A stretch of DNA of 64,000 bases. Origin: an uncultured Bacteroidales bacterium (lineage in GTDB: Bacteria; Bacteroidota; Bacteroidia; Bacteroidales; VadinHA17). Positions 23,937 through 59,359 of the stretch are shown here, one piece after another (positions within the stretch are counted from its first letter, which is position 1; every line of letters begins with the position of its first letter). Location of the stretch: NCBI GenBank assembly GCA_963792925.1, contig CAWBYC010000005.1, forward strand, positions 15,353-79,352. The letters are read 5' to 3'. The translations under genes were made by a program, and so were the position numbers. A model generated the notes under the pieces. That model saw only the letters and a program-made list of their open reading frames with translations. It ran no database searches and was not told the origin of the DNA.

Positions 23937-23939
23937 ATT

Positions 23940-24053
23940 ATGGCTCGGACCAAAAGTTCTGCATCGAAGCCTGACGCGCAAGCGAAGGAATTCAACGGGA
24001 CTCCTCGCTTGCGCGTCGGGCTTCGATGTCGCAAGAGTATTGGTCCGAGCCAT
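23940..24053. repeat. palindromic REP-like element, family P1 (atggctcggaccaa...cgaagcctgacgcgcaagcga / tcgcttgcgcgtcgggcttcg...ttggtccgagccat)
   Basis: This 114-bp near-perfect inverted repeat has a second copy in opposite orientation at 39486-39599. An expanded relative lies at 47578-47881. Confidence 0.8.
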
Positions 24054-24180
24054 ACGTGCGCAAATCGAGCCTCTCGAGCCGCGCACGCAGTAAGCGGTGG
24101 GACGGCACTGGCCGCTGACTCCGCTTCGCTTCGTGCGCGGCTCTTGAGACGTCGCAATTCTCATCGCGTGCGGTGTGGCA

Positions 24181-33648: not shown

Positions 33649-35119
33649 ATGCAACATCACCTGATCGATCACCGACGACCGCCGGGAGTTTCTCGAACAC
33701 GCCGGCCTGGGCTGCGGTTCGCTGGCGCTTGACGAGCCTGCTGCATCAGGAGGGCGTCGTTGCCGCGGCAGCCGGCTGCGACTGCCAATCCGCCGGTCGC
33801 TGCAGCGCGCAGTCGCACTTCGCTCCCAAGGCGAAGTCGGTCATCTGGCTGTTCATGACCGGCAGCCCGTCGCAGGTCGACACGTTCGACTACAAGCCCG
33901 AACTGCAGAAACGCGACGGCCAGAACTCGCCGGGGCCGATCCGAAGACCGGCTTCTTCACCACCAGCGGCAAGTGCCTGAAGTCGCCGTTCAAATTCAGC
34001 AGCACGGCGAGTCCGGCGCCTGGGTCTCCGAGATCTTTCCGCACATGTCGCAAGCACGTCGACGACATGGCGTTCGTCTATTCGTGCTACTCGCAGTCGA
34101 ACAACCACACGCCGGCGATGCTGGAATTGAACTCGCGGCATGATCCGCCAGGGCTTCCCGAGCATGGGCTCCTGGCTGACGTATGGCCTGGGCAGCGAGA
34201 ACGCCAACCTGCCGGCTTACGTCGTCATGCACGGCACGAAGCCGCGCGGCGACGATCCGATCTGGTCGTCCGGCTTCCTGCCGACGGTGTATCAGGCCGA
34301 CGGCGCTCGATCGCGCCGGCGAACGAAGCCGATCGACAACCTGGCCCGGCCGACAGGCACTGACCGACGACCAGCAGCGGTCGCTGCTCGACGTGCTCAA
34401 GCAGCTGAACCAGCGAGCACGCCAGCAGCGCGTCCGCTCGAAGCGCGACCTGGCCGCCCGGCATCGAGTCGTTCGAACTGGCCTATCGCATGCAGACCGC
34501 CGCCCCGGAAGCGCTCGACTCGACGCAGGAACCGCAGCACACGCAGGAGCTGTACGGCCTGGACCGCGACGAGTCGACAGACTATCGGCCGGCAATGCCT
34601 GATCGCCCGGCGGCTGGTCGAACGCGGCGTGCGCTTCGTGCAGATCTTCGCCGCGTGCCCGAACACGCCGCGGCGGCGGCGGTGAGCGACGTGCCCTGGG
34701 ACGGCCACAACGACATCGACGGCAATCACCGCGCCTGCGCGGCGACCGTCGATCAGCCGACCGCCGCGCTGCTGGCCGACCTGAAAGCCGCGCGGCATGC
34801 TCGAACGACACGCTCGTGATCTGGGGCGGCGAGTTCGGCCGCACGTCCGACTCGCAAGGGTCGCGCGGGCCGCGACCACAACCCGAACGCCTTCACCACC
34901 TGGATGGCCGGCGGCGGCGTCAAGGGCGGCGTCCAGTACGGAGCCACCGACGAGTTCGGCTACAAGGCCGTCGAGAACCGAGTCAACGTCCACGACATCC
35001 ACGCCACGATCCTGCACCTGATGGGCCTCGACCACACGAAGCTGACCTACCGCTTCAACGGCCGCGACTTCCGCCTGACCGACGTCGCCGGGAATCTCCT
35101 CAAGCCGATTCTCGCATAA
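33649..35119 (+). CDS. DUF1501 domain-containing protein, frame-disrupted
   Basis: ATG lies at 33649. Matching stretches are [59 protein letters not shown] and WDGHNDI. The tail is [24 protein letters not shown]. It is the usual downstream partner of a DUF1549/1553 gene. Confidence 0.85.
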
Positions 35120-35283
35120 ATCCATTGCCCGTCGGCGGAAATCTCCCGGCGACTCGACCGGAATTTCGTCCGGCTCGAATTCGGAGTCGTTCCGATGCCG
35201 GCCGCGGCGCCCCGGTCGTATCATTCCCGAGTAGGAAACTCCTTCTTGGGGAGCGACTCGTTCGGATGCCAGGGAGCATTGCC

Positions 35284-35568
35284 ATGTCCGAAGCCAAAAC
35301 GACCACCGACCATAACGTCATTCGCCGCTGGACCGAAGAGCGGGGCGGCCATCCCGCAACCGTGAAAACCACTGCGAAGCGGGGCCGCCCGGGCATCCTG
35401 CGGATTGACTTCCCCGGCTACAGCGGGGAGGACACGCTGGAACCCATCGAATGGAATGAGTTCCTCGACAAATTCGATGAGGAAAAACTGGCGTTCCTCT
35501 ACCAGGACAAGACCGACGACGGCAAGACGAGCCGGTTCTGTAAGTTCGTGGATGGCACGTCGGCGTAA
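35284..35568 (+). CDS. small conserved hypothetical protein
   Basis: MSEAKTTTDHNVIRRWTEERGGHPATVKTTAKRGRPGILRIDFPGYSGEDTLEPIEWNEFLDKFDEEKLAFLYQD is an intact, protein-like sequence. I cannot name the family with certainty. Confidence 0.5.
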   Translation: MSEAKTTTDHNVIRRWTEERGGHPATVKTTAKRGRPGILRIDFPGYSGEDTLEPIEWNEFLDKFDEEKLAFLYQDKTDDGKTSRFCKFVDGTSA

Positions 35569-37108: not shown

Positions 37109-37962
37109 TTACGAGTGCCGCAACACCGCGGGCACGGGGGCGGGGCGACGCAGCCGTTTGGTGATGTCGGCCAGCCTGACGAGCTGTTGCACGACCAGCG
37201 GGACGTTCGTCAGGCTGCCGACGAACAGCACGGCGTAGCGAATGACCGCAACGAGGTCGCCGGCGGACATGCCGGCCAGTGTGTCCCATCGCAACATCAG
37301 AACGCCCAGGAACAGGACCAGGCTGAAATCGGTGACGGCGAAGCTGACGGCATGCCAGTCGGAGAGCTTGACCTGCAACTGCCGCAGGCTCCAGAAGTGC
37401 TGCCGGACTTCCTGCGGATCGTTGCGTTCGACCACGTCCACTTCCTGTTCCTGCCGGTCGTGCGTTTCCTGGTTGAGCTGCGAACTCCGTCGGGCCAAGA
37501 GTTTGGAAAACAGTCCGTAGAACAGTAGCAGTCCGCCACAGATCAACCCCCAGATTACGTCGTACCACGCCAGGATCGCCAGCGCCGCCGACCAGCGAAA
37601 ACAGCGTGTAAATAATCACCGGCAAATCCCGCTCGAAAAACGAGACAAGTTGCCGCGACAACGACGACCGCGCCGCCACGCGGGACGTTTCCACATTCTG
37701 GCCCCGGTGAAGCAGGACCATATCCCCCGCCAGGTCGGCGGCGACCGTGCCGAACGTCCGCGTGTCGTACAGATGCCGGGCCGTGGTGATGACCATCTGC
37801 AACAGGCATTGCCCCAGAAACACGAACATCCCCCGCGGGGACGATTCCAGCAGGTCCGCCACCGCCCAGCCCATCGCGAGCGGTTGGGCCAACCGGGATG
37901 ACGTTTTCCAGCACGAACAAGCCGTAGGTCAGCAGGATCGAGCTGCGATACCGGGAGAACAT
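37109..37962 (-). CDS. stand-alone ABC-transporter-type six-TM domain protein (no ATPase domain), frame-disrupted
   Basis: The fragments are MFSRYRSSILLTYGLFVLENV, then LYDTRTFGTVAADLAGDMVLLHRGQNVETSRVAARSSLSRQLVSFFERDLPVIIYTLFSLVG, then LSDWHAVSFAVTDFSLVLFLGVLML...VAVIRYAVLFVGSLTNVP. These resemble an ABC exporter membrane domain. Confidence 0.45.
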
Positions 37963-38411
37963 CCCCCAAGCGTGGCGGCTTCGTGGTCCGCTTCCAGGGA
38001 TTTCCCAAAATTCGAAACATCGTATCCCAATTCGGCGGCGTTCAGAGACAGAGAAACCGTCGATGTCTCGGAACATACGGACGTTGGGGGCAGGCTGTTC
38101 ATGGTTCGGCTTTCGGGAGATCGCGGATTTCAGAAAGGCGAGCGGATTCGAAGAAGACCGCTCACAATTCCCATACCCGCGACGGAACATTCTGTGACGC
38201 AAGGCGAGCGGCGGGATTGATCCCCGCCGTAAGCGTCCCTTCCCGCCGGGGGTGAACCCGGCCGCTCGCACGCTGGCGAAGAAATCTTTCGGCCGCGCTG
38301 TCACGCCGGGAATCCCGGCAGTTATGGGCGGTGTCAGACGCGATGCGACCAGCGAACGCCGGCAGCGGCGACGTCAACCGTTGGGCGTTTCCGGAGCATC
38401 CGTCACCCCTT

Positions 38412-38416
38412 GAGGA
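38412..38416 (+). promoter_or_regulatory. Shine-Dalgarno (GAGGA) of the lasso precursor gene
   Basis: GAGGA lies 8 nt upstream of ATG 38425. Confidence 0.5.
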
Positions 38417-38424
38417 ATTTTGCC

Positions 38425-38595
38425 ATGATCCCGAACAACGTCGTCCCCGTGGTAATCGAAGCCAAAAATGAAACGAAGTCGTCCTACAGCGCTCCCGAAA
38501 TGTTCGTCGTCGGCGAGACGGTTGAACTGATCCAGGGCGCCCAATGGCGCGGCCCGTACGATCATCCCAGTAGCTGGCCGATTTGGCCCCTGTAA
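38425..38595 (+). CDS. lasso peptide precursor (A)
   Basis: The 56-aa peptide is MIPNNVVPVVIEAKNETKSSYSAPEMFVVGETVELIQGAQWRGPYDHPSSWPIWPL. The leader fits the lasso motif YxxPxLx3Gx5Txx at Y-17, P-14, M-12 and G-8, with I-2 instead of T. The predicted core GAQWRGPYDHPSSWPIWPL has Gly1 and Asp9. The gene lies directly upstream of the B and C genes. Confidence 0.65.
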   Translation: MIPNNVVPVVIEAKNETKSSYSAPEMFVVGETVELIQGAQWRGPYDHPSSWPIWPL

Positions 38596-38608: not shown

Positions 38609-38655
38609 CGCTGCGGTCACTCCCCGAAATCGGAAGTGGCCGCGGCGTTTTTTTT
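38609..38655 (+). terminator. intrinsic terminator/attenuator hairpin after the precursor gene
   Basis: A 13-bp stem (cgctgcggtcact / agtggccgcggcg, two G-U pairs) is followed by T8 at 38648-38655. Confidence 0.6.
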
Positions 38656-38670: not shown

Positions 38671-39547
38671 ATGTCGACGACTGCCCCCATTGCGACCGCA
38701 CTGAAACAGACAATGCCGGCAGCCGGCGCCGAAGCCTCGTGGAACAATACAATGAATCCGTCGCTGCCGTATCGCCTGGCGGTCGATGTGCTGCTGGTTC
38801 CGGTGCCGGACGGCAGCGCGACTCATCGACCTCCACGGGCAGTTCTTCGCGCTGTCGGAATCGGCTGCGCGGATGCTGCAAGACACGCTCGAAATGGGAC
38901 CCGAAGAGGCTGCCGAGGCCGTTGCCCGCCGCTGGAGCATCAGCCGCGAACAGGCCGCCGCGGACCTTGCCTCATTCGTCGGACGGTTGCTCGAACAGGG
39001 ATTGCTGGTGTCGGTCGATCATCAGCAACGTCGGCCCCGGCTTCGGCAACGGCTGGCAGTCATCGTCGTTTTCATTCTGATTCGCCTGACGTGTTGCTTT
39101 CGCCGCTCGCTGAAGGGGAAAATCTCCGGATTGCTGACCGCAGCCCGGTTTTCGTGCCGTTGGCTCGGTTGGGCCAACACGGTCAGCCTGTGGCAACGGC
39201 TGTTTGTGCGCCGAAAACAATGCCTGGTCGGCGGCTCCACGGAAACGGTGCTGAAGGAACTTGACGATGCGGTGCGGCGGGCAGTCGGAGAGTCGGCATT
39301 CGCCCACGCTTGCAAAGAACGCGGCCTGTCCGCCTGGGCTTTGGGCCGCCGCTTGGGATTGGACGTGCGACTTATCATCGGGCTGAGCGTCTGCCCGGTC
39401 CACGGCCACTGCTGGGCCAAATGCGGTGAGATTATCCTCGGCGACGACGAGGACCAGTGCGGACAATACGAACCGATGCAGAGCTATGGCTCGGACCAAT
39501 ACTCTTGCGACATCGAAGCCCGACGCGCAAGCGAGGAGTCCCGTTGA
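38671..39547 (+). CDS. lasso peptide biosynthesis B protein: fused PqqD-like RRE (B1) and transglutaminase-like Cys protease (B2); one frame change near 38815
   Basis: The B1 part is PYRLAVDVLLVPVPDGSA / RLIDLHGQFFALSESAARMLQDTLEMGPEEAAEAVARRWSISREQAAADLASFVGRLLEQGLLV. The B2 part is ACKERGLSAWALGRRLGLDVRLIIGLSVCPVHGHCWAKCGEIILGDD. Its Cys-to-His spacing is 32 and its His-to-Asp spacing is 12. The 3' end runs into a P1 repeat. Confidence 0.7.
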
Positions 39548-39599
39548 ATTCCTTCGCTTGCGCGTCAGGCTTCGATGCAGAACTTTTGGTCCGAGCCAT
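39486..39599. repeat. palindromic REP-like element, family P1, inverted copy
   Basis: It has the same two arms as 23940-24053 in the opposite order. It overlaps the last codons of the lasso B gene. Confidence 0.8.
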
Positions 39600-39638
39600 A
39601 TGCCTGATAACGACAGTGCCATGTCGCCTGCGTTCGCA

Positions 39639-39750
39639 GCGGAATTCGTGAGAATTCCGAAGGAAACTGCTCTTTATCACGTCGGAATTCTTGCGAATTC
39701 CGCTACAGAGCGCTGTCGGAATTCTTACGAATTCCGCTACAGGGCGCTGT
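39639..39750. repeat. EcoRI-site palindromic repeats, family P5 (gcggaattcNtNNgaattccg), three copies incl. a 34-bp tandem duplication
   Basis: The first copy is gcggaattcgtgagaattccga at 39639-39660. The tandem pair is cggaattcttgcgaattccgctacagagcgctgt at 39683-39716 and cggaattcttacgaattccgctacagggcgctgt at 39717-39750. A further copy lies at 12025-12046. Confidence 0.75.
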
Positions 39751-39836: not shown

Positions 39837-41717
39837 ATGAACTTCGGTTTCCTCGCACGGTACGACGAACGCGGAGTCTCGTTTCAGCAGGTCGGGGAAC
39901 CGGCTGAAGCGCTACGCCGTTACTGTCGCACGCCGGCGATCAGAACGCCCGCGTCGTCTTTCTGGGCCGGCTGTATTATCGCGACGATCTCCGCCGCCGG
40001 TTTTCAGAACTGCGGCGGCCCGAACCGGCCGAGTCCGCCGCGGCGCACGTTTTGGCGGCCTATCGGCAGGCGGGCGCCGACGGATTGACGTGGATTGAAG
40101 GCGACTACGCCTTCGTGCTCTGGGATGCCCGCGAGCAGCGGATGTTTGCGGTCCGCGATCCTCAGGGGGGATTCCCGCTGTATTGGATACACGACGGTGA
40201 CGCCATTGCCGTCAGCAATGCGATGCGGCCGCTGGTCGACGTGTTACCGCACCGCAGGCTGGACCGCGATTACGTCGCCGAATACCTGATGCTTCCGGGC
40301 ACGGGAGTGCAAGAAGTCAACGACGAACACTGCGCCTATGAGGGAGTCCATCGCGTCCTGGCGGGCACGCGGCTCGAAGTTCGGCCCGGCGGACAGGCCA
40401 AACTGGTGCGTTGGTGGGACTGGCTCGATCAGATTGAAGAACCCGGTAGCCTGCAGCATGAGGCCATCGCCGCGAGGTTCGGTGAACTCTTCGCGGACGC
40501 CGTGCGGCAACGGCAGGTCGGCCGGACGGCGGCCCACCTTTCCGGCGGAATGGACTCGACGGCCGTCGCCCTCTTGCTGGCCCGGAATGCGCGAGAAGCG
40601 GGGGACGAACCCATCCACGGTCTCTCGCTGGTCTACGAACGTTTCAGTTTTCTGGCCCGCGAACGGCCCTTCGTGGAATGCGCGCTCGGAGAATCGGGGT
40701 TGAAATCGCATTTGTTGTCCGGCGACGAGCATCTCGGCTTCGAAGGCTACCGTGACGATGTGAATTCCGACGAGCCGGCACTGGTGCTGTATCAATCGAC
40801 GTCGAATCAGGCGATGCTGCGACACGCCGCCGACCTGGGCGCGCACACGCTCATGACCGGTTTGGGCGCCGACGAACTCATCGGCCAGCCGGCGTTCCAT
40901 CTGCACGAACTGCTCCGCCGGGGCCGCTGGCTGGCCGCCTGGCGGCGAGTCGGCCCGCTGGGCCAAAGAGGCCAACAGCAACCGCTGGAGCTTTCTCGGC
41001 ATGTTCGGGTTGAGGCCGCTGTTCCCTGCCCGATTGCGGGGCGGGCTGCGTTGCTGGTGGCGCGGCGGGCAGGTTCCGTGGGAAGAGCAGTGCGAGTTTA
41101 CGGTCGGTCCCTGGGTCCGTTCGGAATTCGCCCGCCGCTACGGACTGTGGAATCGGGCCGTCGCGCGACTCCGTCGAGTGACCCGCCGTTGCCGGCCTTT
41201 GGCCCGGTCGCTGACATTGGAATTTCTGGACTTAAACGTCGGGGACGCCTTGCGTTGGTCGATGGGCGTTCCGCGCGGCATCTTGACGGTTCATCCTTTT
41301 CGCGACCCGCGGCTGGTACGATTCTGCCTGGGGTTTCAAGGCCGCATCTGGGGGGACCCGACGCGGCAGAAGCCGATTCTGGCCGACGCCATTCCGGGCT
41401 TGCTCCCACCGGCGATCTGCGAGCGCCGTCGCAAAGGCCATTTCAACGAGATTTTCTTTGCCGGCCTTTCGCGGAATCTCCCGGTGCTGGAGGCCTTGGT
41501 TCGCAACTCCGCCGTGGACGATGACCTGTTCGACAAGCAGGAACTGCTGCGTTGTCTGCACAAAGGCGCGCTGGGCATCGCCGAGCATTCGCAAGGCGTG
41601 GACCGTTTGAACCTGACGTTGGGGCTGCTGAAGTGGCTCGCGGTCCAGAAGACGGCCCTGCAGAACGCTGGCCCGCCGTTGCAACCGCTGGATGCGATCC
41701 CATCGGCGACTGCCTGA
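39837..41717 (+). CDS. lasso peptide isopeptide bond-forming cyclase (asparagine synthetase B-like, C), frame-disrupted near 39950 and 40990
   Basis: The start is MNFGFLARYDERG. The N-terminal domain is LAAYRQAGADGLTWIEGDYAFVLWDAREQRMFAVRDPQGGFPLYW. The PP-loop is AAHLSGGMDSTAVALLLA. The C-terminal part lies in ORF 41001..41717 (HPFRDPRLVRFCLG...KPILADAIPGLLPPAICERRRKGHFN). Confidence 0.8.
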
Positions 41718-41939: not shown

Positions 41940-43723
41940 ATGGAAACTCCGACTTCGCACTACACCGTTCTTGCCCGTCGCTTCCGCCCGCAGACATTTG
42001 ACGAAGTCATCGGGCAGCAGCACGTCGCGCAGGCGTTGAAGAACGCAATCTCCGGCGGCCGCGTGGCCCATGCCTACCTGTTCACGGGAGCTCGCGGCGT
42101 CGGAAAAACGTCGATGGCCCGCATTTTCGCGAAGGCGTTGAACTGTCCGAACGCCGTCGACGGCATCCCCTGCAACAACTGCGAAGTTTGCAACGGCGTC
42201 TCTGCCGGCAACGACGTGGACGTGATGGAAATCGACGGTGCGTCGAACAACGGGGTGGACAACATTCGCGACATCCGGTCGAACGTGGGCGTGAAGTCGA
42301 TGCGGTCCCGGCACAAAGTCTACATCATCGACGAAATCCACATGCTGTCCAAGCCGGCGTTCAACGCGCTGCTGAAGACGCTGGAAGAACCGCCGCCGAG
42401 CGTGCTGTTCGTATTCTGCACGACGGAGCCGCAGAAGATCCTCGACACAATCCTCTCCCGCTGCCAGCGGTTCGACTTCGCGTCGATTGAAACGCAGAAC
42501 ATCATTCAACGGCTGAAGGAAATCGCGGACGCGGAAGGCTACCAGGTTGAGCCGGACGCGCTGGAACTCGTCGCGCGGCGGGCCGGGGGGTCGATGCGGG
42601 ACAGCCAGTCGCTGTTCGATCAGTTGCTGGCATTCGGCAGCGAAACCATCACGGCGCAGGACGTGCACCGGCTGCTGGGGACGGCCGACGACGAACGGCT
42701 GCTGACTATCGCGCTGGCTCTCACCCGCCGCGACCGGGATGCGGCACTGCGGGAACTGGATGCCGCGTTAGCCGATGGCGTGCAGCTCGGCGAGTTGACC
42801 GACCAGTTGATCCATTTCTTCCGGGACCTGATGATCGTGGCGTCGAACGCGGAGAAGGTCGCGTTGCAGAGCGTCGCGGAAATTCGCCGGCCGGAGCTGG
42901 CCCCGCAGGCGGAATCGTGGGGACTGGCGACAATCGTCGCGGCGTTGCAGATTCTGGTGGAAGCGAAGGTCCGCATGTTCCGGCGCCGTATGCCCGCGCG
43001 ATGGCCGAACTGGCGCTGGTGCGGATCACGCTACTGGAGAACCTGGAAAGCCTGGCGGGGCTGATTCGCGGCCTGACGTCGGGGGATGGATCGCAAGGCC
43101 GAACGCCGCAGCCTTCGCAGACTCCCGCCTCATCACGTTCCGCCCCCGCACGTTCCCCACTCCCCGAACGCCCCGCGACCGGCAACCGCGCCTTGCATGG
43201 GGCGGCGGCTCCGTCAATGGCCAGCAGCCTCCGTGCCGAAGATTCCTCAAAATCACTATCCGCAGTCCAAGTTTCCACCGCGCAAGTGCAGTCCCCACCC
43301 CACATTGCGATCGCGGTGCGGCCCGGCAACGAAGATCGCGTCTTGTCGCAACTCGCTGAAAACACAGATGATGCGTCACGGGCTCACCTGAAATCCGTGT
43401 CAATAGCAATTTCCGGGCCAAATCAGGTGGATTTATTGTTCGCGCCAAGCTATCATTTCTCGAAATCGTACTGTGACCGATCGGAAATCCGCGGCCGCTT
43501 CGAGTCGATCCTCACCGAAGCGGCCGGGAAACCGGTCAAAGTCAACATTCGGATCGACCCCACCGAACCAACCGCGGAAAGCCCAAAACGAGACAACACC
43601 CAACCCGACCCGCCGGCCCGCACGAGAACTGTCGAACTGTCTCAAGCCGACGCCGACCCGTTCGTGCAGCAAGCCGTTTCGATCTTCGGCGGGACGATCA
43701 AGCAAGTCGATCGGATCGGATGA
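41940..43723 (+). CDS. dnaX: DNA polymerase III subunits gamma/tau, one frame change near 42980
   Basis: [57 protein letters not shown] and the Zn module CNNCEVC are present, with SRCQRFDF. The C-terminal half lies in ORF 42917..43723. Confidence 0.9.
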
Positions 43724-44765: not shown

Positions 44766-45394
44766 ATGTCTAGGAATGGTGAGTTCTCTCAACCGCACCC
44801 CTACGGGCCGTCGGTCGCGAATCTGATCGATCAGTTCGCCCGGCTGCCCGGCATCGGCCGAAGACGGCCGAGCGGTTGACGTACCACATTCTGGCCGCCC
44901 CGGAAGACGGAAGCCGCCAATCTGGCCGGACGCTTTGCGGACGGTGAAGACCGCGGTGCGTCCCTGCCGGCAGTGCTTCAACCTGACCGAAGGCGAAATG
45001 TGCGACATCTGTTCGGACGCCCGCCGGCAGACCGACGTGGTCTGCGTAGTCGAGCAGCCGCGGGACGTCACCGCACTGGAAGCGTCCGGCGTCTTCCAGG
45101 GGCTGTACCACGTGCTGCAGGGGAAGCTCTCCCCGCTGGACGGCATCGGACCGGAGAAACTGACCATCGACGCCCTCGTCAGGCGGGTCAACCGGGACGG
45201 CGTCACGGAACTCATCATGGCCACCAACCCGACACTGGAAGGCGACGGCACCGCCCTGTTCATCTCCAACATCCTCGCGAAGACTGCCGGTACGGATCAC
45301 CCGCCTGGCCCGCGGCATCGCCACCGGCAGCGTGCTGGAATTCGCCAACAAGGAAATGCTGGCGGACGCACTCCGCGGCCGGCAGGAGTTTTGA
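44766..45394 (+). CDS. recR: recombination protein RecR, frame-disrupted
   Basis: The start is [12 protein letters not shown]. The C4 finger is [18 protein letters not shown]. The Toprim part is [39 protein letters not shown]...[19 protein letters not shown]. The tail is [16 protein letters not shown]. Confidence 0.85.
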
Positions 45395-45557
45395 GAGTGA
45401 GCGATGATGGAAGTGAGCGGAATCGCCATGACAACGGACAATCGACGAGCGGAGTTCAATGATGCTGAGCAACGAGGCAGACCCCGATCACTCAATGCCG
45501 ACGACCCATGCCGGGCTCGTGCGCATCTCAGAGACGGATCACTGAGACGACCGAACG

Positions 45558-47041
<1,484 letters not shown>

Positions 47042-47140
47042 GCCGCCCGGTTTCCGGTGTTCGACAGTTCAACGGCGATTGGGAATGGCGATCGCCGCGG
47101 ATCGGCTTCACGGGGACCGGGAAATCGTCCCTCTTGGATT

Positions 47141-47505
47141 GGAGATACTACCGAATCGCGTCCCCGCGGTAGGCCGCGAAAATGACGCCCGGCTCGTCGG
47201 AATTGCCGAGCGAATAACTGCCGAGAACCCGCGACCGCGCGAACGTCCGCGGCGACGTCCCCGCGGATCTCCTTCAGAAGCGCCGGACGCAATCGCGGGT
47301 CGGGATAACGGCGGCGAATCACCTCCACCAGCAGGTCCTCGATTGTCGAAAACTCCCCGGCCTTGCCGCCGTCGGCAACCGGCCGCCGCGCTTCGACCGC
47401 CGGCCGTTCCTCCGCGACAGCCGCTTCGCAAACGGAGCCGGCGATCGCGGCAGTCGCCAGAGCGCGGCGGCTGAATTCACGGCGGGTCAGTTCTCCTGTC
47501 GACAT
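47141..47505 (-). CDS. small Tat-signal hypothetical protein, frame-disrupted
   Basis: [28 protein letters not shown] is a twin-arginine signal. The tail was reconstructed in another frame ([24 protein letters not shown]). Confidence 0.35.
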
Positions 47506-47577: not shown

Positions 47578-47881
47578 GGTCGGACCCAAAGTTGTGAATC
47601 GAAGCCTGACGCGGAAGCTTTAAAGTTGCGCCCTTCCGTCCCGAAGGGACGCCACGAAAATAGCCGAGCGATTCATCGCTCGATCGAGTACGGGAAAGCC
47701 GCGCAGTCCCGAAGGGATGACTGAACGCTTCAGCCGTCCCTTCGGGACTGTGGTTCCCGGGCGCGTCAAACCCGGCGATGAATCGCCGGGCTTCTGTCGA
47801 ACCGTCCCTCCGGGACGAAGAATTGCGCAACTTCAAAACTTGCGGGTCAGGCTTCGATATCGCAAAAGAAATGGTCCGAGC
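47578..47881. repeat. composite palindromic element: P1-like outer arms enclosing gtcccgaagggac-type sub-hairpins
   Basis: The outer arms are ggtcggacccaaagttgtgaatcgaagcctgacgcg and cgcgggtcaggcttcgatatcgcaaaagaaatggtccgagc. Inside are four copies of gtcccgaaggga / tcccttcgggac-type units and a ccggcgatgaatcgccgg hairpin. Confidence 0.7.
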
Positions 47882-49998: not shown

Positions 49999-51855
49999 TC
50001 GCCCGGTGGTCGAATCAGCGCTATTAATCCTATAAATGCCTGCGGAAGTGTTCCGATCACTATTGACGGAAATCCGACAGGAGGTTCAGGCACCTGGTCA
50101 TCACATGTGTGGACCGGAGATGTTGGTCCTCTGAGCAATTATTTTGTCCAGGCTCCGGCTTTCAACTCACAGATAGCCGGAACATATGCACTGAACTACA
50201 GGGTGACCGATAACAATGGTTGCTATGGGACAGGCGATGTAACAGTTAATGTAGATGCTCCCGATGCGACCTTCACACTGGATAAGACAAACGGATGTAC
50301 ACCGGCTACTGTCACCTTCACGAAAGACATGACAGGCGTTGTTAAATTCTGGTGGAACTTCGGTGATGGCTCACCAAAAGACTCACTGAATGCAAATCCT
50401 GTCCATACGTTCTCAAATGTCAGTCCTTCATCGATTGTATACAATGATGTAACGCTGACAGTGAAGTCTCCGGGCGGTTGCCTTGATTCCTATACAGCTT
50501 CAGTGACTGTCTATCCGTCAATTGATGCAACGTTTACCGCAAGTCCGGCAATAGTCTGCAGCGGCAACCAGGTTGTATTCACAACATTGCCGGGTGCCAG
50601 CAAATATTTCTGGGACTTTGGTGACGGAGTGAGCGGATATTTCACAAATTCGACAAACCATCTGTTTACCAACCTCACGCTGGTACCGGTCGTACGCACT
50701 GTCACGCTTACAACGACATCGTTCTACAACTGCGTTGATATGCAGACCCTGCAGGTTACTGTCATGCCGGTTCCACTGCCTCAGTTTACCGGTTTCCCGG
50801 TCTCGCAGGCATACAATCCTTTGGGCAACCCGGTTACATTTACGAACACTACCAATCCGGGTACCTGGACATGGCTATGGAATTTCGGTGACGGAACGAC
50901 ATCAACTGACATGAATCCTGCTCATACCTATACCGTGTTAGGAACATTCGACGTGGTATTGAAAGTGACAAATGCAAACTGTGCCGACAGTGTCAAACAT
51001 ACTGTAACTGTTACGCCTCTGCCGCCTGTGGCTTCATTCGATCTGATACCATCGGGTTGCTCGCCATGGACGATTAATCTGAATAATACTTCACTCAATA
51101 CCGACACTCCGGGTACAACATATATGTGGGACTTCGGTGACGGAACCAGTTCAACGGCGAAGAATCCGAGTTACACCTACTTTACGCCGGGTCAATACAG
51201 GGTTGAGCTGGTGGTAACTGGTCCGGGCGGCACTTCCAACCTCTCTCAGGTTGTTAACGCCTATCCTTCACCGCTGGCTAATTTCCAGGTTTCCCCGACT
51301 GTTGTCTTTGCCAATGATGAACAGATAAGATGTTTCAACCTCACACAGGGAGCCGATTCATATCTCTGGGAGTTTGGAGACGGTGATACTTCGAAGGTTG
51401 CGGATCCTTACCATAAATATATGGAAGAAGGCACCTATGATATTACACTCTGGGCATATCTGCATAACGTGATCAATAATGAAACCGTCGTGTGCAGTGA
51501 CAAGTTTGTCTTATCGCCGGGAGTTATCGTTGAGCCTGCAGGAACCATAAGATTTTCAACAGTATTCACACCGAATTTATCGGGCGAAGTTGACATGGAT
51601 CATCTGCCAACGGGAGGTACCGAGATAGACCAGTTCTTCTTCCCGCCAATAAGGGAAAAGGTTATTGATTATAAGCTTCAGATCTTCAACAGGCTGGGTG
51701 TGCTGATATTCGAAAGTCACGATATCAACAGGCCATGGAATGGATACTACCATAACAAGCTTTGCACGCAGGGTGTTTATGTTTGGTATGTTGAAGGGAA
51801 GTATGCCAATGGTCAGCCATTCAAGAAGGTGGGGGATATAACGTTGTTGCATTAA
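49999..51855 (+). CDS. PKD-repeat protein with T9SS type B (gliding-motility CHU_C) C-terminal sorting domain, 5'-truncated at the block B/C junction
   Basis: The frame is open from 49999, and the ORF track starts at an internal GTG at 50107. Six W(N/D/E)FGDG PKD signatures are present. The C-terminus is FTPNLSGEVD...LQIFNRLGVLIFES...WNGYYHNKLCTQGVYVWYVEGKYANGQPFKKVGDITLLH. Confidence 0.8.
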   Translation, partial: SPGGRISAINPINACGSVPITIDGNPTGGSGTWSSHVWTGDVGPLSNYFVQAPAFNSQIAGTYALNYRVTDNNGCYGTGDVTVNVDAPDATFTLDKTNGCTPATVTFTKDMTGVVKFWWNFGDGSPKDSLNANPVHTFSNVSPSSIVYNDVTLTVKSPGGCLDSYTASVTVYPSIDATFTASPAIVCSGNQVVFTTLPGASKYFWDFGDGVSGYFTNSTNHLFTNLTLVPVVRTVTLTTTSFYNCVDMQTLQVTVMPVPLPQFTGFPVSQAYNPLGNPVTFTNTTNPGTWTWLWNFGDGTTSTDMNPAHTYTVLGTFDVVLKVTNANCADSVKHTVTVTPLPPVASFDLIPSGCSPWTINLNNTSLNTDTPGTTYMWDFGDGTSSTAKNPSYTYFTPGQYRVELVVTGPGGTSNLSQVVNAYPSPLANFQVSPTVVFANDEQIRCFNLTQGADSYLWEFGDGDTSKVADPYHKYMEEGTYDITLWAYLHNVINNETVVCSDKFVLSPGVIVEPAGTIRFSTVFTPNLSGEVDMDHLPTGGTEIDQFFFPPIREKVIDYKLQIFNRLGVLIFESHDINRPWNGYYHNKLCTQGVYVWYVEGKYANGQPFKKVGDITLLH

Positions 51856-51956
51856 AAAGGCGGCCCCCCTGCCCCCCTAAAGGGGGGTGGCTTTGGAGAC
51901 AGAACTGCCCCCCTGCCCCCCTGAAGGGGGGTGGCTTTAGAGATAAATTTAAATTT

Positions 51957-51982
51957 AAGCCCGTTGAGAGACGGGCTTTTTT
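51957..51982 (+). terminator. intrinsic terminator between convergent genes
   Basis: The hairpin aagcccgt tgagag acgggctt is followed by ttttt. Confidence 0.6.
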
Positions 51983-52242
51983 GATAGCTGTAACAGAAGG
52001 TTAACTTTCCCCTCCTTTTTCAATAGTTTTTATACACATCACTGGATGTATCTCATTCCTTGTCATTTACCCCCTGCCCCCTAAAGGGGGTTCAAGAACC
52101 TGCAGTATCTGCTTACACCTTTTTAAAAAATTTTACTCGCTTAGCTCTGAACAGATTTTCGAGAGGATCGAGCCCCCTTTAGGGGGTTGGGGGTTAAAAA
52201 AGTGAGCAATTAGGGTGAGTTTCTCAGCACCCGAACTCAATA

Positions 52243-54144
52243 CTAACCTCCGTACCTTTTCCGGGAGCAGGAAGCTATTTCCAGATTTCCGTTGAGGGCT
52301 GTGACCCTTTGCCGGATATTTTTCAGTCCGTTTCCTCCTCCGGATTCGGCGATTGCAGGGTCAAAGCCCTTGCCGTTATCCTCTACAGTGATATGCAGCC
52401 TCGATTCATCAATGATCAGCTGCACACTGATATCGCTGGCTTCCGAATGACGCAGGGCATTATTCACAATCTCATTTACAATACGGTATGCAGCAATTTC
52501 CGTTTTTTCATCCGGACGCCTGTCTTCCCCGAAAAAGTGATATTTTACTTTTTCAGTGCTGAAACAAAAATCTGACAGCGCGGTATTCAGTCCATATTTC
52601 ATCAGCGACTCAGGCATAAGGTTATGGGCAACCCGTCGCAGCTCTTTTATGGAGGTGTCGAGAAGATCGATTGCAGAATTATAGGCTGCCACATTCTCTT
52701 CCGTAATTGTCATATTTCCTCTCATGCTTGTCATTTTCAGTTTTGCCACCGACAGCAGGCCGCCTAATCCGTCATGAAGATCTCTTGAAAGCCGGGCTCT
52801 TTCTGAGGTCTCCCCTTCAAGCAATGACTGTGTGGCAGTGATCTGTTTTTCCTGTTCAAGCTCCTTTATTCTTTGACTTGCTAAAAGCTGGCGCTGTTTC
52901 TGGTTTTTATAAATGAAATAGCCTGCCCCTGCACCGGCAGAGAGTATCGCAAGAAGAGACAGAATAAGAATATTATTTGTTTTCTTTTGGGCTTTCAGGA
53001 CCGTGATCTCAAGTTCTTTTTTTTCGGTGTTGTATTTTGCATCGGTTTCGGCGATCTTTCCTGCCCACTCCTGGTTCAGATCGGCCTCTTTCATGTCTAT
53101 CTGTTTCTGGGAATAGAGCAGAGCCTCCTCAGGAAGGTTAAGCCATATAGCCGATCTCTTTAGCATATCGTAAAGCAAACGCATATCGAGCCTGTTCGAT
53201 GTGTCAGCTACCTGCAAGGCCTCCTTCCCCAGGGCCATGGCCTCGGAATACCGCTTTGATTCAATCAGGTAGTCGCCTTCCTGGCGATAAGCCTCCATCA
53301 TCCCCCTCGCATTTTTGTTATCCTTGTATATATTGATAGCTGTATGGGTATATTCTATGGCTTTATCCTTATTTCCTGTCATATAATAGCAGTATCCAAC
53401 CCTTATGAGAGCCGCGGCATAGTAGTTTTTATCAATCTCCTTCAGAAGGTTCAGGGCTTCATCACCGAATTTTATTCCCTCTTCATAATCGCCATTGTTA
53501 AGGGCAAATACTGAAAGGTTAACCAGTGAGACAGCAGTTCCTCTTTTATCTTTTGTCTTTCTTTGTATTTCAAGGGAATGAAGCGTGTATTCCTTCGCTT
53601 TTTCCTGATTACCCGCCGTATAATAGAGAGAGCCGATATTTCCCAGCAGTTTTCCCTGTTTCTCAATATCATTTACCGACTCGTAATATTTCAGAAGGTT
53701 GGTGTAAATTACCATGGCAGTATCATATTTTGCCGTTACACGGAAAATATTCGCGACATTGTTCAGGATCTCAACCTCTTTCTTTTTATCAGGATGATCC
53801 TTCAGAACCGCTAATGCTTTATTGAAAAAGAAAAGCGAACTGTCATTTTTCCCCTGATTATAATATATATATCCCATCCAGGATTCTGCCTCCCCTTTTC
53901 CGTTAATATCGTTATTCCGCTCAGCCAGAACGGATTGCCGCTTTGCTACCGACAAGGCTGCAGGAAGGTTGTCGACAAGATATAAATCATACAGCTCATG
54001 AAGGATTCGCGATTGCTCCGGATAATTATCCGGTTTTATCAGGGTAAATGCCTTTTGCAGGGAGTCGGTCTTTAAGGATTGATTCTGCCCGGTTAAAGGA
54101 AGAAAAAGAAGGGATAAAAACGGAATAATCAAAAAACGTCTCAT
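52243..54144 (-). CDS. TPR-repeat sensor histidine kinase (HisKA_3 + HATPase_c)
   Basis: The protein has a signal/TM start, about 8 TPR-like units and a TM helix. The H-box is RARLSRDLHDGLGGLLSVAKLKM and the ATPase part is NNALRHSEASDISVQL...VEDNGKGF. The last ~8 codons look frame-shifted; the alternative tail PGKGTEVSIEFGC would end at 52224. Confidence 0.85.
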   Translation of the reverse strand: MRRFLIIPFLSLLFLPLTGQNQSLKTDSLQKAFTLIKPDNYPEQSRILHELYDLYLVDNLPAALSVAKRQSVLAERNNDINGKGEAESWMGYIYYNQGKNDSSLFFFNKALAVLKDHPDKKKEVEILNNVANIFRVTAKYDTAMVIYTNLLKYYESVNDIEKQGKLLGNIGSLYYTAGNQEKAKEYTLHSLEIQRKTKDKRGTAVSLVNLSVFALNNGDYEEGIKFGDEALNLLKEIDKNYYAAALIRVGYCYYMTGNKDKAIEYTHTAINIYKDNKNARGMMEAYRQEGDYLIESKRYSEAMALGKEALQVADTSNRLDMRLLYDMLKRSAIWLNLPEEALLYSQKQIDMKEADLNQEWAGKIAETDAKYNTEKKELEITVLKAQKKTNNILILSLLAILSAGAGAGYFIYKNQKQRQLLASQRIKELEQEKQITATQSLLEGETSERARLSRDLHDGLGGLLSVAKLKMTSMRGNMTITEENVAAYNSAIDLLDTSIKELRRVAHNLMPESLMKYGLNTALSDFCFSTEKVKYHFFGEDRRPDEKTEIAAYRIVNEIVNNALRHSEASDISVQLIIDESRLHITVEDNGKGFDPAIAESGGGNGLKNIRQRVTALNGNLEIASCSRKRYGG

Positions 54145-54256
54145 AGAAAACAGGTGTTTGGATCACAATAGGTTTAATTCCTGAAAATACCCATTTAAAT
54201 GTATTCAGGCATAAATTGACAGAAATATTTTTCAGACATTCAAAGGTGTTTGATTG

Positions 54257-55366
54257 CACCCCTAAATCCCGCGAGAGGGACTTACCCCTAAATCCCCCAG
54301 GGGGGACTTTGGCTTTTTAGTAAACCGTAGCTCAGTTTCAACACTGAGGTTTACCCCTAAATCCCCCAGGGGGGACTTTGGCTTTTCAGTAAACCGTAGT
54401 TCAGTTTCAACACTGAGGTTTACCCCTAAATCCCCCAGGGGGGACTTTGGCTTTTGAGTAAACCGTAGTTCAGTTTCAACCCTGAGGTTTACCCCTAAAT
54501 CCCCCAGGGGGGACTTTGGCTTTTTAGTAAACCGTAGTTCAGTTTCAACACTGAGGTTTACCCCTAAATCCCCCAGGGGGGACTTTGGCTTTTCAGTAAA
54601 CCGTAGTTCAATTTACCCTAAATCCCGTGAGGGTTTACCCCTAAATCCCCCAGGGGGGACTTTGGCTTTTCAGTAAACCGTAGTTCAGTTTCAACACTGA
54701 GTTTTACCCCTAAATCCCCCAGGGGGGACTTTGGCATCTTCTTAAACCTTGTGTCACTGATTCAGTAGAGGGATTGAAGCCCCCCTTGGGGGGTTTGGGG
54801 TAAAAGCCCAGCAATGGGAATTACCGCTAAATCCCGCAAGAGGGACTTACCCCTAAATCCCCCAGGGGGGACTTTGGCTTTTCAGTAAACCGTAGTTCAG
54901 TTTCAACACTGAGGTTTACCCCTAAATCCCCCAGGGGGGCTTTGGCAGTAAACCTAGTCAGTTCAACCTGAGGTTTACCCCTAAATCCCCCAGGGGGGAC
55001 TTTGGCATCTTCTTAAACCTTGTGTCACTGATTCAGTAGAGGGATTGAAGCCCCCCTTGGGGGGTTTGGGGGTAAAAGCCCAGCAATGGGAATTACCGCT
55101 AAATCCCGCAAGAGGGACTTACCCCTAAATCCCCCAGGGGGGACTTTGGCTTTTTAATAAACCGTAGCTCAATTTCAACCCTTAGTTTTACCCCTAAATC
55201 CCCCAGGGGGGACTTTGGCATCTTCTTAAACCTTGTGTCACTGATTCAGTAGAGGGATTGAAGCCCCCCTTGGGGGGTTTGGGGGTAAAAGCCCAGCAAT
55301 GGGAATTACCGCTAAATCCCGCAAGAGGGACTTACCCCTAAATCCCCCAGGGGGACTTTGGCTTTT
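54257..55366. repeat. tandem repeat array: 13 near-identical 31-nt cores (tacccctaaatcccccaggggggactttggc) in 69-bp A units and 144-bp B units
   Basis: Cores start at 54283, 54352, 54421, 54490, 54559, 54636, 54705, 54848, 54917, 54976, 55120, 55189 and 55333. A-unit linkers are nearly identical to each other (ttttcagtaaaccgtagttcagtttcaacactgaggtt). B units (54705, 54976, 55189) are nearly identical to each other. Degenerate cores lie at 54257 and 54614. Confidence 0.9.
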
Positions 55367-55383
55367 CTACAACCGACAACTTT

Positions 55384-55809
55384 CTATATATCCCAGGTTG
55401 GGTTTTTGAGACGTTTATTAACTGCCTCTATTATTTCAGATACAACTTTATCTATATCGGTTTCCACCTGAGTATTTTTAAACCTTATCACTTTGATACC
55501 ATATTTTTCCATCTCGGCTGATCTGCCATCATCATATTCAGTTTGTTGTGAATGAATTTCGCCGTCTAATTCTATTACTAGCCTTGCTTTATGGCAATAA
55601 AAGTCAGCAATATAGAATTCAATTGGATGTTGTCTTCTGAAACGGAGACCGCATATTTGCTTGCCACTGAGTTTTTCCCATAGAATTTTCTCTGCAAAGG
55701 TCATGTTTTCCCTTAGCATTTTAGCGGTATTCAGGGTAGTAGGCGTAGTCCTGAAATACATTGTTTTATAAAGCTCTCTCTTCATAATTACAGAAGTTGT
55801 TAAATTCAA
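55384..55809 (-). CDS. DUF559 endonuclease-domain protein (Vsr/restriction-endonuclease-like fold)
   Basis: AKMLRENMTFAEKILWEKLSGKQICGLRFRRQHPIEFYIADFYCHKARLVIELDGEIHSQQTEYDDGRSAEMEKYGIKVIRFKN is the classical DUF559 core. The start may be an internal Met. Confidence 0.8.
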   Translation of the reverse strand: MNLTTSVIMKRELYKTMYFRTTPTTLNTAKMLRENMTFAEKILWEKLSGKQICGLRFRRQHPIEFYIADFYCHKARLVIELDGEIHSQQTEYDDGRSAEMEKYGIKVIRFKNTQVETDIDKVVSEIIEAVNKRLKNPTWDI

Positions 55810-55898
55810 CAGAGGTCAATGGGTAAAATTTAAGAAATACCAGGGCCATAAATTCTTAAATTCAAGACAAAAAAAATACCAAGGCCATAGACATTCTT

Positions 55899-56098
55899 AA
55901 AGTCCCCCTCTGGGGGATTTAGGGGTAAGTCCCCTTTGGGTAGGGGTAACCCTACGGAAATGAAAGAATATCAAGGCCATAGACAATCTTAAAGTCCCCC
56001 CTGGGGGATTTAGGGGTAAGTCCACTCAAAGGGGATTTAGGGGTAAGTCCACCCAAAGGGGATTTAGGGGTAAGTCCCCCCTGGGGGATTTAGGGGTG
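55899..56098. repeat. inverted-orientation copies of the 54257-55366 core (aaagtcccccctgggggatttaggggta)
   Basis: Good copies lie at 55899-55927, 55991-56018 and 56073-56098. Degenerate copies lie at 55928, 56019 and 56046. Three ataccaRggccataNANattcttaaa linkers lie at about 55838, 55875 and 55966. Confidence 0.8.
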
Positions 56099-56183
56099 GA
56101 AACCCAGGGAAGAAGTTGCCGTTGAAAATATTTCCTCGCAAATTCCAACTATCTTCAATTCTTTGAGTCTTTACGTTGAGAAT

Positions 56184-56732
56184 ATGAGCATGGACGATAT
56201 AAATATAAACAGAGAGCTCCTGGCACGATGCAGGGACGGGGAGGTGAAGGCGCAGTTTATGCTCTATAAACAATACTCAAAAGCCATGTACAACATTGCG
56301 ATAAGGTTTCTTAACAACAGGATGGATGCAGAGGATATCCTTCAGGAATCTTTTGTCACGGCATTTGAAAAGCTGGGTGAGCTTTCGAGTGACAACGCAT
56401 TTTCGAGCTGGCTGAAAAGGATCGTTATCAATAATTGTATCACTCACCTGCGGAAACGGATTATTCTGGATGATATCGGCGATCATATCACAATAGCAGA
56501 TGATGATAACGGTGAAGAAGAATTGAATATTGATCCGGCGATTGTACATGACGCCATCAAAGATCTTCCTGCAGGGGGAAGGACGATCCTCGTCCTCCAT
56601 GCGATGGAAGGATATAAGCACAGGGAAATAGCCGTGATGCTCGGGATCTCCGAATCGACGAGCAAGACTCAGTACAGACGGGCCCTGGATTTACTTTTTC
56701 TCAATCTGAAACAAAAAATATATGTCAGTTAA
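56184..56732 (+). CDS. ECF-type sigma-70 family RNA polymerase sigma factor
   Basis: The region 2 part is DAEDILQESFVTAFEKLGEL..FSSWLKRIVINNCI. The region 4 part is LPAGGRTILVLHAMEGYKHREIAVMLGISESTSKTQYRRALDLL. Confidence 0.85.
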   Translation: MSMDDININRELLARCRDGEVKAQFMLYKQYSKAMYNIAIRFLNNRMDAEDILQESFVTAFEKLGELSSDNAFSSWLKRIVINNCITHLRKRIILDDIGDHITIADDDNGEEELNIDPAIVHDAIKDLPAGGRTILVLHAMEGYKHREIAVMLGISESTSKTQYRRALDLLFLNLKQKIYVS

Positions 56733-57285
56733 ACTGGAAAAATATCTTTTACGCCAAAGGAGGAACATGGATGTTGAGACTCCTGATGATGATCTGATCT
56801 GGAAAGGGATTCAGAGCAGGCTCGATGGTGTAAATCCTGAGGTCAGGCGTCTGACAAATAAGATCAGACTCCTGAAGATCAGGAATTTTGCTGCCACGGC
56901 AATAATACTTTTTACGCTCGGGTATATTGCCAATGATATTGTCAACAGGAAATCGCAGGACAAATCAGTTACATTATCGTCCATCAATACGGAACTCGGC
57001 AGGAGGGAGACAGAATATAGAACGATGGTCAGTTTTAAGACACAGGAGGTGAGATCGTTTGCCGCGACTGACGATAAGGTGATCAGTGAATTGTTCGATG
57101 AGATAAACGAACTTGATGCAGTGTATGATCAGGCTATGGCTGATCTGAAAGAACTTGGTCCGAATGACAGGGTGATTAATACCATCTTCAGTACCTATGA
57201 GCAGAAGATCCGTCTTCTTGAATTAATAATACTTGAAACAAACAAAATAAACAGTCATGAAAACAATGAGAAAATTATTCTTTAG
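56722..57285 (+). CDS. putative anti-sigma factor (single TM helix)
   Basis: The gene overlaps the sigma gene by 11 nt. It has one TM helix (FAATAIILFTLGYIANDIV). The call is positional. Confidence 0.45.
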   Translation: MSVKLEKYLLRQRRNMDVETPDDDLIWKGIQSRLDGVNPEVRRLTNKIRLLKIRNFAATAIILFTLGYIANDIVNRKSQDKSVTLSSINTELGRRETEYRTMVSFKTQEVRSFAATDDKVISELFDEINELDAVYDQAMADLKELGPNDRVINTIFSTYEQKIRLLELIILETNKINSHENNEKIIL

Positions 57286-58579: not shown

Positions 58580-58795
58580 GTTTTGATTTTACATATGAAC
58601 AGAAAGCCTTCTCCGGTATCCGGGGAGGCTTTTGTTATTATAAAAGATGGTAAGAGTCGGAAGACGGAAGTGGTTTTACTTCTTCCCGGCTTCAATCATC
58701 TGATTTCCTCCTTCTTCAAAAAAATCACAAAATAATGGTATCTGATTGAAATATTTCATAAATTTGAGTTGCTGCGTTTTCTAAATAGGAACATA

Positions 58796-59032: not shown

Positions 59033-59059
59033 GTAACCGCGGCTTTCAAGCCGTGGTTA
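59031..59059. repeat. REP hairpin (gtaaccgcgg ctttcaag ccgtggttaac)
   Basis: It belongs to the same hairpin family as 59210 and 59818. Confidence 0.7.
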
Positions 59060-59209
59060 ACGGAAAAACCTGGATCAAATATATAATAAGTATATACTGC
59101 CAGCACTAAGTCGATACAAGTTAAGAGATCTGGTTTTCGGCTGACAGGTTATGGCTTTCAGGCCCTGCTATTTAGATTTATATCATGTTACACATCCGAG
59201 TATTTTCTA

Positions 59210-59269: not shown

Positions 59270-59359
59270 TACTTATTCAGCCGGGGTTTTACATCAGTCC
59301 ATCATCCTCGGACTGTCAGATTATAAATTCGTGGCAAGTAAATCACTAAACTTAAAAAA

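Follow-up and report, generated by a model that had tools for sequence, protein, structure and literature searches.

Does an open reading frame that lacks the Thr expected at position -2 of lasso leaders encode a lasso peptide precursor, and is the Ile found there a peculiarity of one gene or a property shared with its relatives? The frame in question lies at 38425-38595 (+) of a 64,000-nucleotide stretch of DNA that was analysed as a whole (hereafter the window). We consider it very probably the structural (A) gene of a class II lasso cluster, in which gene D is divergent from the collinear genes A, B, and C. Its translation, MIPNNVVPVVIEAKNETKSSYSAPEMFVVGETVELIQGAQWRGPYDHPSSWPIWPL, runs to 56 residues before a TAA stop and has the form MIPNN...VELIQ/GAQWRGPYDHPSSWPIWPL, with the split between leader and core at Gln37/Gly38. 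The parts of the gene are as follows.

38412..38416 (+): Shine-Dalgarno-like GAGGA, 8 nt before the ATG, read from the sequence
38425..38535 (+): leader of 37 codons, MIPNNVVPVVIEAKNETKSSYSAPEMFVVGETVELIQ, with a variable N-terminal part and a conserved recognition segment in its C-terminal part
38536..38595 (+): core of 19 codons plus TAA, GAQWRGPYDHPSSWPIWPL, predicted class II with a Gly1-Asp9 macrolactam and a 10-residue tail

With Gly38 counted as core residue 1, the leader carries Q-1, I-2, L-3, G-8, M-12, P-14, and Y-17, which matches the lasso leader pattern Y-17 xx P-14 x L-12 xxx G-8, with M at -12. The preliminary description had proposed this register (Y-17/P-14/M-12/G-8/Ile-2), and translation of 38425-38595 reproduces it exactly; together with F-11, T-6, and the three residues at the leader end, these positions form the conserved segment of the window precursor (Y-17, P-14, M-12, F-11, G-8, T-6, L-3, I-2, and Q-1). 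The only acidic residue among the 19 of the core is Asp9. It falls within the 7-9 interval expected of a lasso ring that starts at Gly1, and it leaves a 10-residue tail able to thread (HPSSWPIWPL) with two Trp (Trp14 and Trp17) and three Pro. Cys is absent from the core, as expected of class II, which has no disulfide. The calculated monoisotopic mass of the dehydrated (lasso) form of the core is 2231.070 Da.

The good GAGGA ribosome-binding site of the earlier account is present at 38412-38416, and homologous precursor genes have AAGGAG, AAGGA, or GAGG at similar spacing. As had also been remarked, the mechanical ORF list contains the gene only inside a longer, TTG-initiated frame of 61 amino acids (38410-38595); the ATG is the more credible start because the TTG of that frame overlaps the ribosome-binding site. 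A promoter scan found no sigma-70-like promoter. A precursor pattern (Y..P.[LIMV]...G.{7}[GASC].{5,7}[DE], then a short tail and a stop) has a single match in the six frames of the 64-kb window, at 38425-38595, compared with a mean of 0.08 in shuffled sequence. None of the Pfam and NCBIfam profiles recognises the precursor peptide itself, so its identification rests on context and homologues; antisense ORFs over the A gene gave no Pfam family match.

The context bears out the call of a lasso precursor, since a lasso B protein and a lasso C cyclase are encoded next to the ORF and orthologous clusters keep it. D lies on the minus strand, followed by A, B, and C on the plus strand, and B begins 76 nt downstream of A.

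37109..38076 (-): D, membrane protein ABC_membrane_3 (PF13748), divergent from A; start uncertain, 38076 or 37962
38671..39547 (+): fused lasso B, with an N-terminal PqqD-type leader-binding domain and a C-terminal transglutaminase-like cysteine protease
39837..41717 (+): lasso cyclase C, Asn-synthetase-like, with Pfam GATase_7 and Asn_synthase and the NCBIfam lasso lactam cyclase model

Gene B thus brings a protease and a leader-binding domain into direct neighbourhood with the precursor (Pfam PqqD, 31.6 bits; Transglut_core3, 38.6 bits; both above cut-offs), and it also matches the NCBIfam lasso_biosyn_B2 and lasso PqqD models. The repaired translation has 292 amino acids and a Cys215/His247/Asp259 triad that is invariant in an alignment with six homologues. 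By HMMER, the N-terminal domain matches TfuB1 (6JX3) and TbiB1 (5V1U), and a search with the family profile identifies these as the closest solved relatives of the leader-binding domain (TfuB1, 6JX3, E = 7e-5; TbiB1, 5V1U/5V1V, E = 0.02). An AlphaFold2 model of B (mean pLDDT 71.8, pTM 0.69) retrieved nothing from the PDB at E <= 0.001 with Foldseek, the only sensible match being TbiB1 at probability 0.60 over 58 columns. As modelled, the structure and the PDB search add nothing beyond the sequence evidence.

The Asn-synthetase-like macrolactam synthetase expected of a lasso cluster is present as gene C, with its frame broken twice in the assembly. Its translation contains the PP-loop motif LSGGMDS, and the NCBIfam lasso cyclase model reaches E = 2e-39 on the largest fragment, the NCBIfam scores lying below curated cut-offs partly because fragments were scored and also because the family is divergent. 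Compared by tblastn with the intact C proteins of the homologous loci L009, L004, and L026, the gene is full length in three frame segments, the two long ones with 52-60% identity.

Gene D encodes no ATPase domain and is a putative export or self-protection component. It is kept in four or five loci: its orthologue follows C in L008 (3431-4270), L009 (8705-9633), and L026 (8074-9057), and in L004 its start overlaps the end of C. The close clade has this membrane-only PF13748 protein, whereas L025, a locus of the wider family, has a full ABC exporter (4254-6041). A literature search on PF13748 brought up two papers only, neither of them concerned with lasso peptides. No kinase or other tailoring gene is present in the window cluster, which is flanked by an ECF sigma factor gene and dnaX. 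The sigma factor was considered as a cluster regulator and set aside: genes for ECF sigma factors occur close to the cluster in the window as well as in L009 and L026, yet orthology is unsupported, and the ECF sigma protein of L026 finds no counterpart in the window or L009 by tblastn at 1e-4.

To what extent the precursor is a family member rather than an isolated frame can be read from its homologues. A search with the peptide returned one relative, P0001, which is 67% identical, has a core differing by one residue, and lies on a contig with the start of a B gene after the precursor. Searches with B gave six close relatives in the protein collection, two Planctomycetaceae genome bins, and five close metagenome loci. 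Twelve distinct homologous precursors adjoin B homologues (47-61% identity) in metagenomes and in the two Planctomycetaceae bins, and a small ORF with the same leader end stands beside B/C wherever the contig reaches far enough. A different small ORF in the homologous clusters, which the preliminary description had named as evidence that would speak against its call, was looked for, and the same small ORF proved to be conserved instead. The precursor is thus a member of a small, mostly metagenomic, Planctomycetaceae-associated class II lasso family. The genome that carries the window cluster is itself probably planctomycete.

Several loci of this family depart from the arrangement in the window. 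L013 has two tandem precursor genes (42-215 and 437-610), L026 carries two lasso clusters side by side (4464-10747), the second with two precursors, and in L012 the order is B-C-A instead of A-B-C, with the precursor at about 4008-4184. An A-B-C-D set in which every gene is called as a single frame is found in L026.

These comparisons also bear on whether 38425-38595 could be a chance open frame in G+C-rich DNA that encodes no peptide. Many spurious ORFs do overlap on both strands here, and the failure of every Pfam and NCBIfam profile to recognise the peptide would suit such a frame. More than 10 loci, however, keep the peptide, in every case next to B/C; a ribosome-binding site precedes it, its substitutions include synonymous ones, and its motif has no second match in the window. 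Over the segment that starts at Y-17 and runs to the stop codon, the gene differs from its orthologues in L001 and L002 by 7-8 synonymous and 5-8 non-synonymous codons, a substitution pattern that, on these alignments, is of the coding type. A chance frame is effectively refuted by the homologue comparison, and we give it next to no weight.

The position of the cleavage site follows from where conservation ends. In an alignment of 11 peptides (the window precursor and 10 homologues), no variation is seen at Y-17, P-14, F-11, G-8, L-3, I-2, G+1, one Gly within the ring, or the ring Asp, and A-15, V-9, T-6, V-5, and Q-1 hardly vary; position -12 is M, I, or V across the family, and the N-terminal part of the leader varies freely. 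The end [DE]LI[QN]/G is common to 11 of the 12 homologous precursors. Beyond it the peptides fall into unrelated core types: GAQWRGP[YL]DHP[SN]SWP[IV]W[PS]L; G[FY]..YGWFD[AV]R.GY..., also given as G[FY]..YGWFD.RSGYHHN; and GAKTTGPLDWSSSWPQYDPYAK and GNDGPWHDADNRWCKEHK, in shorter form GAKTTGPLD.. and GNDGPWHD... Conservation that stops at Q/G in front of differing cores is the signature of a leader/core boundary. When the precursors of the homologous clusters are aligned, the boundary proposed in the preliminary description thus coincides with the end of family conservation, and the alignment fixes the predicted cleavage site at Gln-1/Gly1. Asp9, the ring acceptor proposed there, aligns with the invariant Asp of the family. 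This residue occupies position 8 or 9, which predicts a Gly1-Asp8 or Gly1-Asp9 ring throughout the 11 peptides.

Another register would have the peptide cut after Gly38, giving an Ala1-Asp8 ring, or after the upstream Thr-Val, making Thr the -2 residue. For the window peptide taken alone, the first of these is chemically possible, as Ala2...Asp9 spans 8 residues, and Ala1 occurs in some known lasso peptides, for example paeninodin; the second could appeal to the nearly invariant Thr at -6. There is also some uncertainty of register in the wider family, where the first acidic core residue of the precursors in L024 (3292-3516, SGSPPAKYPD...) and L025 (1215-1424, GIVYTKYYQD...) is at position 10 when read in the Y-17 register; in these two loci, either the cleavage register is shifted by one or 10-membered rings are formed. 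In the 11-peptide alignment, however, Gly+1 is invariant and the next residue varies (A, Y, F, N), and the shift would give Tyr1-Asp7 in L003. A cut after Thr-Val leaves E/D-L-I-Q-G... with no acidic residue at 7-9, and the Y-17/P-14/G-8 spacing is canonical only with Q/G. A different register is therefore very unlikely, and the boundary at Gln37/Gly38 is the one used below.

The residue at -2 is then Ile, as had been described. The accompanying statement that Thr is normally invariant there does not hold, given that Thr occupies -2 in 94% of predicted lasso leaders (PMC11420955) and that Ile-2 has been validated in BsfA of Bradymonas sediminis, where it occurs naturally, where cleavage was shown in vitro, and where replacement of Ile by Thr or Ala (I-2T, I-2A) puts an end to it (Duan et al. 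2023, PMC10368454). Predicted precursors with Ile, Val, or Ala at -2 have also been cited for Acidobacteriaceae, for Sphingomonadales, and from Kretsch et al. 2023, and all Ile/Val-2 clusters uncovered by Duan et al. contain a kinase or phosphotransferase (PMC10368454). The Ile-2 trait is thus already published; what differs in the window, to a real but modest extent, is its occurrence with a fused B in a kinase-free context.

Within the close family, the aligned precursors show that Ile-2 is close to a rule, with one exception, a Leu-2 precursor in L026 (...STVELLQ/GIPFNEIRE). The leaders of the second cluster in L026 end in ...TRLVQ/S... and ...TNLLQ/G..., that of L024 in ...LNLIR/S, and that of L025 in ...TRLLR/G. 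Read in the Y-17 register, none of these further L024, L025, and L026 precursors has Thr at -2, and across the wider B family this position holds I, L, or V. Beside L017, a far more remote relative of B, lies a precursor that has the usual Thr (...VETQ/G). When 1.84 billion representative proteins were scanned with the B profile, at least 209 clusters (50% identity) were matched at E <= 1e-30, and among the 150 matches listed most are fused B proteins at full length, about 250-260 residues long. Judged from the precursors read, the aliphatic -2 residue seems to be a trait of the fused-B lineage and not a quirk of the window gene.

The leader-binding domain was considered as a source of this trait. 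The Tyr of TfuB1 GEYWQLN and of BsfB1 NEYFGLN aligns with Phe in the window B and with Phe or Thr in the family. From numbering offsets, we take the Tyr of GEYWQLN to be FusE Tyr33 and that of NEYFGLN to be BsfB1 Tyr37. FusE Tyr33 has been cited as a suspected contact of Thr-2 (Duan et al., PMC10368454), which made replacement of Tyr by Phe or Thr a candidate cause of Ile-2. In McjB, however, a Phe of the B1 domain (Phe23) lines the modelled Thr-2 pocket (PMC11420955). Phe or Thr at the contact site is not diagnostic, because McjB is also modelled with Phe and accepts Thr, and the candidate was rejected.

Comparison with known systems places the cluster apart from the one validated Ile-2 case. 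Like bsf of B. sediminis FA350 (PMC10368454), it combines Tyr-17, Pro-14, an aliphatic -12, Ile-2, and Gly1. The leader ends are ...TLAAIIR/G in BsfA and ...TVELIQ/G in the window; BsfA is cut in vitro by a B1/B2 pair after the residue that follows Ile, and cleavage in the window is predicted at the same place. In contrast, bsf has separate B1 and B2 proteins, a kinase, a phosphorylated Ser3, and an Asp8 ring, whereas the window has a fused B, no kinase, and a predicted Asp9 ring. The window B shows no significant similarity to BsfB2 (BLASTP E = 0.12). The kinase and separate B1/B2 proteins that mark the Ile/Val-2 phosphorylated group are missing from the window cluster, and its family is an exception to the association with a kinase or phosphotransferase in the Ile/Val-2 clusters of Duan et al. 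With a fused B, no kinase, and no significant similarity to BsfB2, the cluster is therefore not filed with that group.

The Y-17 xx P-14 x L-12 xxx G-8 register and the B-then-C logic are shared with fusilassin/fuscanodin of Thermobifida fusca (TfuB1 = FusE, 6JX3) and with the TbiB1 system (5V1U/5V1V), but these have Thr-2 and split B1/B2 proteins, unlike the Ile-2 and fused B of the window. Microcin J25 (McjA/B/C/D) is alike in organisation, with a fused B in which the protease follows the leader-binding domain, a four-gene A-B-C-D logic with a membrane component, and a class II product. McjA has Thr-2, in contrast to Ile-2 of the window precursor. It is also without the YxxP motif, its product closes the ring between Gly1 and Glu8, and McjD is a complete ABC exporter, whereas D of the window is a PF13748 membrane protein with no ATPase domain.

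The space between A and B holds a further element, with counterparts in homologous loci.

38609-38647 (+): terminator-like hairpin between the A gene and B, followed by T8 at 38648-38655

Its stem has 13+3 bp and is followed by the eight T. A simple terminator scan missed it and folding revealed it: the 86-nt stretch that contains the hairpin has a folding energy of -32 kcal/mol (z = -3.5), which no shuffle out of 200 equalled. In six homologous loci the corresponding intergenic site also forms a strong hairpin, of unrelated sequence (z from -3.2 to -7.2). The post-A hairpin is probably an attenuator or an mRNA-stabilising element that gives excess precursor transcript. Hairpins that raise the precursor message are an arrangement reported for other RiPP operons.

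Is this copy of the cluster functional? The reading frame of B is broken near 38818-38821, where its invariant DGSAR motif is split in the alignment with six homologues, consistent with loss of two bases in gcgcga. C is broken near 39896-39911 and 40947-40972, and D near 37888-37895 and 37581-37600. A genuine precursor in a decaying cluster, with real frameshifts that together with repeat insertion leave no lasso peptide to be made, would account for the frameshifts, of which B has one and C and D have two each. The housekeeping genes, however, are broken likewise. The domains of rpoN (45558-47474) switch back and forth between two frames over at least four segments, recR (44935-45500) has its N-terminal domain and C-terminal end absent in frame, and dnaX (41940-43723) runs out of frame after domain III and is probably frameshifted. 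These genes lie in the same 60% G+C stretch as the cluster, with roughly one indel per kb. Assembly indel error is therefore the likelier cause of the frameshifts in B, C, and D. The related locus L009 also has a frame break in D, and the A gene is intact and collinear with its orthologues, which argues further against decay.

A DUF1501 gene (34140-35568) is another of the genes split over several frames. The window from about 6000 to 50000 resembles an unpolished long-read assembly, and gene calls there are unreliable.

Two kinds of repeat at the end of B and in the spacer between B and C also have to be weighed in this question.

39485..39600 (no strand): palindromic MITE-like element of 116 nt that interrupts the last codons of B, 100% identical to 24054-23939
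39638..39748 (no strand): three 34-nt units with the palindrome CGGAATTCNNNCGAATTCCG, in tandem in the B-C spacer

Both copies of the 116-nt element (39485-39600 and 23939-24054) are flanked by TA on both sides and have the terminal inverted repeats TATGGCTCGGACCAA...TTGGTCCGAGCCATA. The element changes the end of B from ...QSYA and a stop to ...QSYGSDQYSCDIEARRASEESR and a stop, 19 residues replacing a single Ala with a new 18-residue end. Removing the element and one TA restores ...QSYA, and homologous B proteins end in ...TYE or ...TYA, so that it is apparently an insertion with TA duplication. With the GGAATTC-palindrome repeats and the element, the B-C spacer measures 290 nt, compared with about 15-20 nt in homologues, and this may affect expression of C. 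Related pieces of the 116-nt element occur at 47580-47618 and 47839-47881, and a further copy of the CGGAATTCNNNCGAATTCCG repeat lies at about 12007-12047, 27 kb away. The insertion in the last codons of B is real, and with the additional repeats and the lengthened spacer it counts on the side of decay. In view of the equally broken housekeeping genes, we nevertheless regard a decaying cluster as unlikely, and prefer a cluster whose B, C, and D frames were disrupted in assembly. If the frameshifts were real, the window copy may be non-functional.

The remainder of the window is heterogeneous. G+C is 70-75% in positions 1-6000, 57-65% between, and 35-49% in 50000-64000, and the shifts, at about 6 kb and about 49.9 kb, are sharp. 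Long intact ORFs occur in the final 14 kb; one encodes a PKD protein whose CHU_C domain is a type IX secretion signal, and a TPR histidine kinase is also encoded there. We take the CHU_C domain to be associated with Bacteroidota. This part looks like DNA of another organism, brought in by a chimeric join, concatenation, or recent transfer. It includes an intact 722-aa PCAT at 61125-63293 (+) (Peptidase_C39, ABC_membrane, and ABC_tran), with ORFs at 59952-61132 directly upstream, of which 59952-60614 has no Pfam match. The PCAT gene may point to another RiPP or bacteriocin locus with no relation to the lasso cluster.

How the cluster would work can be outlined from the McjB/McjC and fusilassin reconstitutions and from the structures of B1/RRE domains with leader (5V1U/5V1V, 6JX3). 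As in established lasso biochemistry, Y-17, P-14, and M-12 of the leader would bind the PqqD-type domain of the fused B, and the Cys-His-Asp protease domain of B would cut at Gln37/Gly38, with the aliphatic Leu-3/Ile-2 pair standing where most systems have Thr-2. C would adenylate the side chain of Asp9 and join it to the amine of Gly1 around the pre-threaded tail (the biochemistry behind the B and C steps is drawn also from PMC10885120). The predicted product is a 19-residue [1]rotaxane of 2231.07 Da, as calculated, in which Trp14 and/or Trp17 would be the likely plugs; Trp and Pro in the tail are plausible as steric plugs. The hairpin after A would raise the ratio of precursor to enzyme transcripts, and the PF13748 membrane protein may export the peptide or protect the producer. 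Plugs, threading, and the role of D are what we infer, and do not observe, for the predicted lasso peptide.

For the biology of Ile-2 precursors, the window family provides a family-supported case that differs from the only validated example in having a fused peptidase and no kinase. The combination of a fused B and the lack of a kinase with Ile-2 indicates that the trait is not tied to phosphorylated lasso peptides. For genome mining, it means that tools in which Thr-2 carries a heavy weight would score this whole lineage too low. The literature on lasso peptides of Planctomycetes and Planctomycetota, viewed as titles and abstract openings, consists of survey papers, none of them titled as a characterised compound. 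With their Trp/Pro-rich tails and a phylum for which the titles and abstract openings searched point to no characterised lasso peptide, the family members are reasonable targets for heterologous expression.

A broader and more tentative possibility is that the fused-B relatives jointly represent a large uncharacterised lasso lineage, with an aliphatic switch at -2, a PF13748 swap, and some 10-membered rings. Such a lineage, seen here in the Planctomycetaceae bins and many metagenomes, may take in the at least 209 representative clusters at 50% identity that were matched at E <= 1e-30. Its peptidase may have given up Thr-2 for Leu-3/[Ile, Leu, Val]-2 in a switch of its own, unconnected with the kinase-linked Ile-2 group, the membrane-only PF13748 protein may replace the usual ABC exporter in the close clade, and rings of 10 members may arise in L024 and L025, provided that the Y-17 register applies there. 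If this reading is true, its products would be the first lasso peptides from Planctomycetota, as far as titles and abstract openings in the literature search show, and the lineage would offer an orthogonal leader/peptidase pair for engineering.
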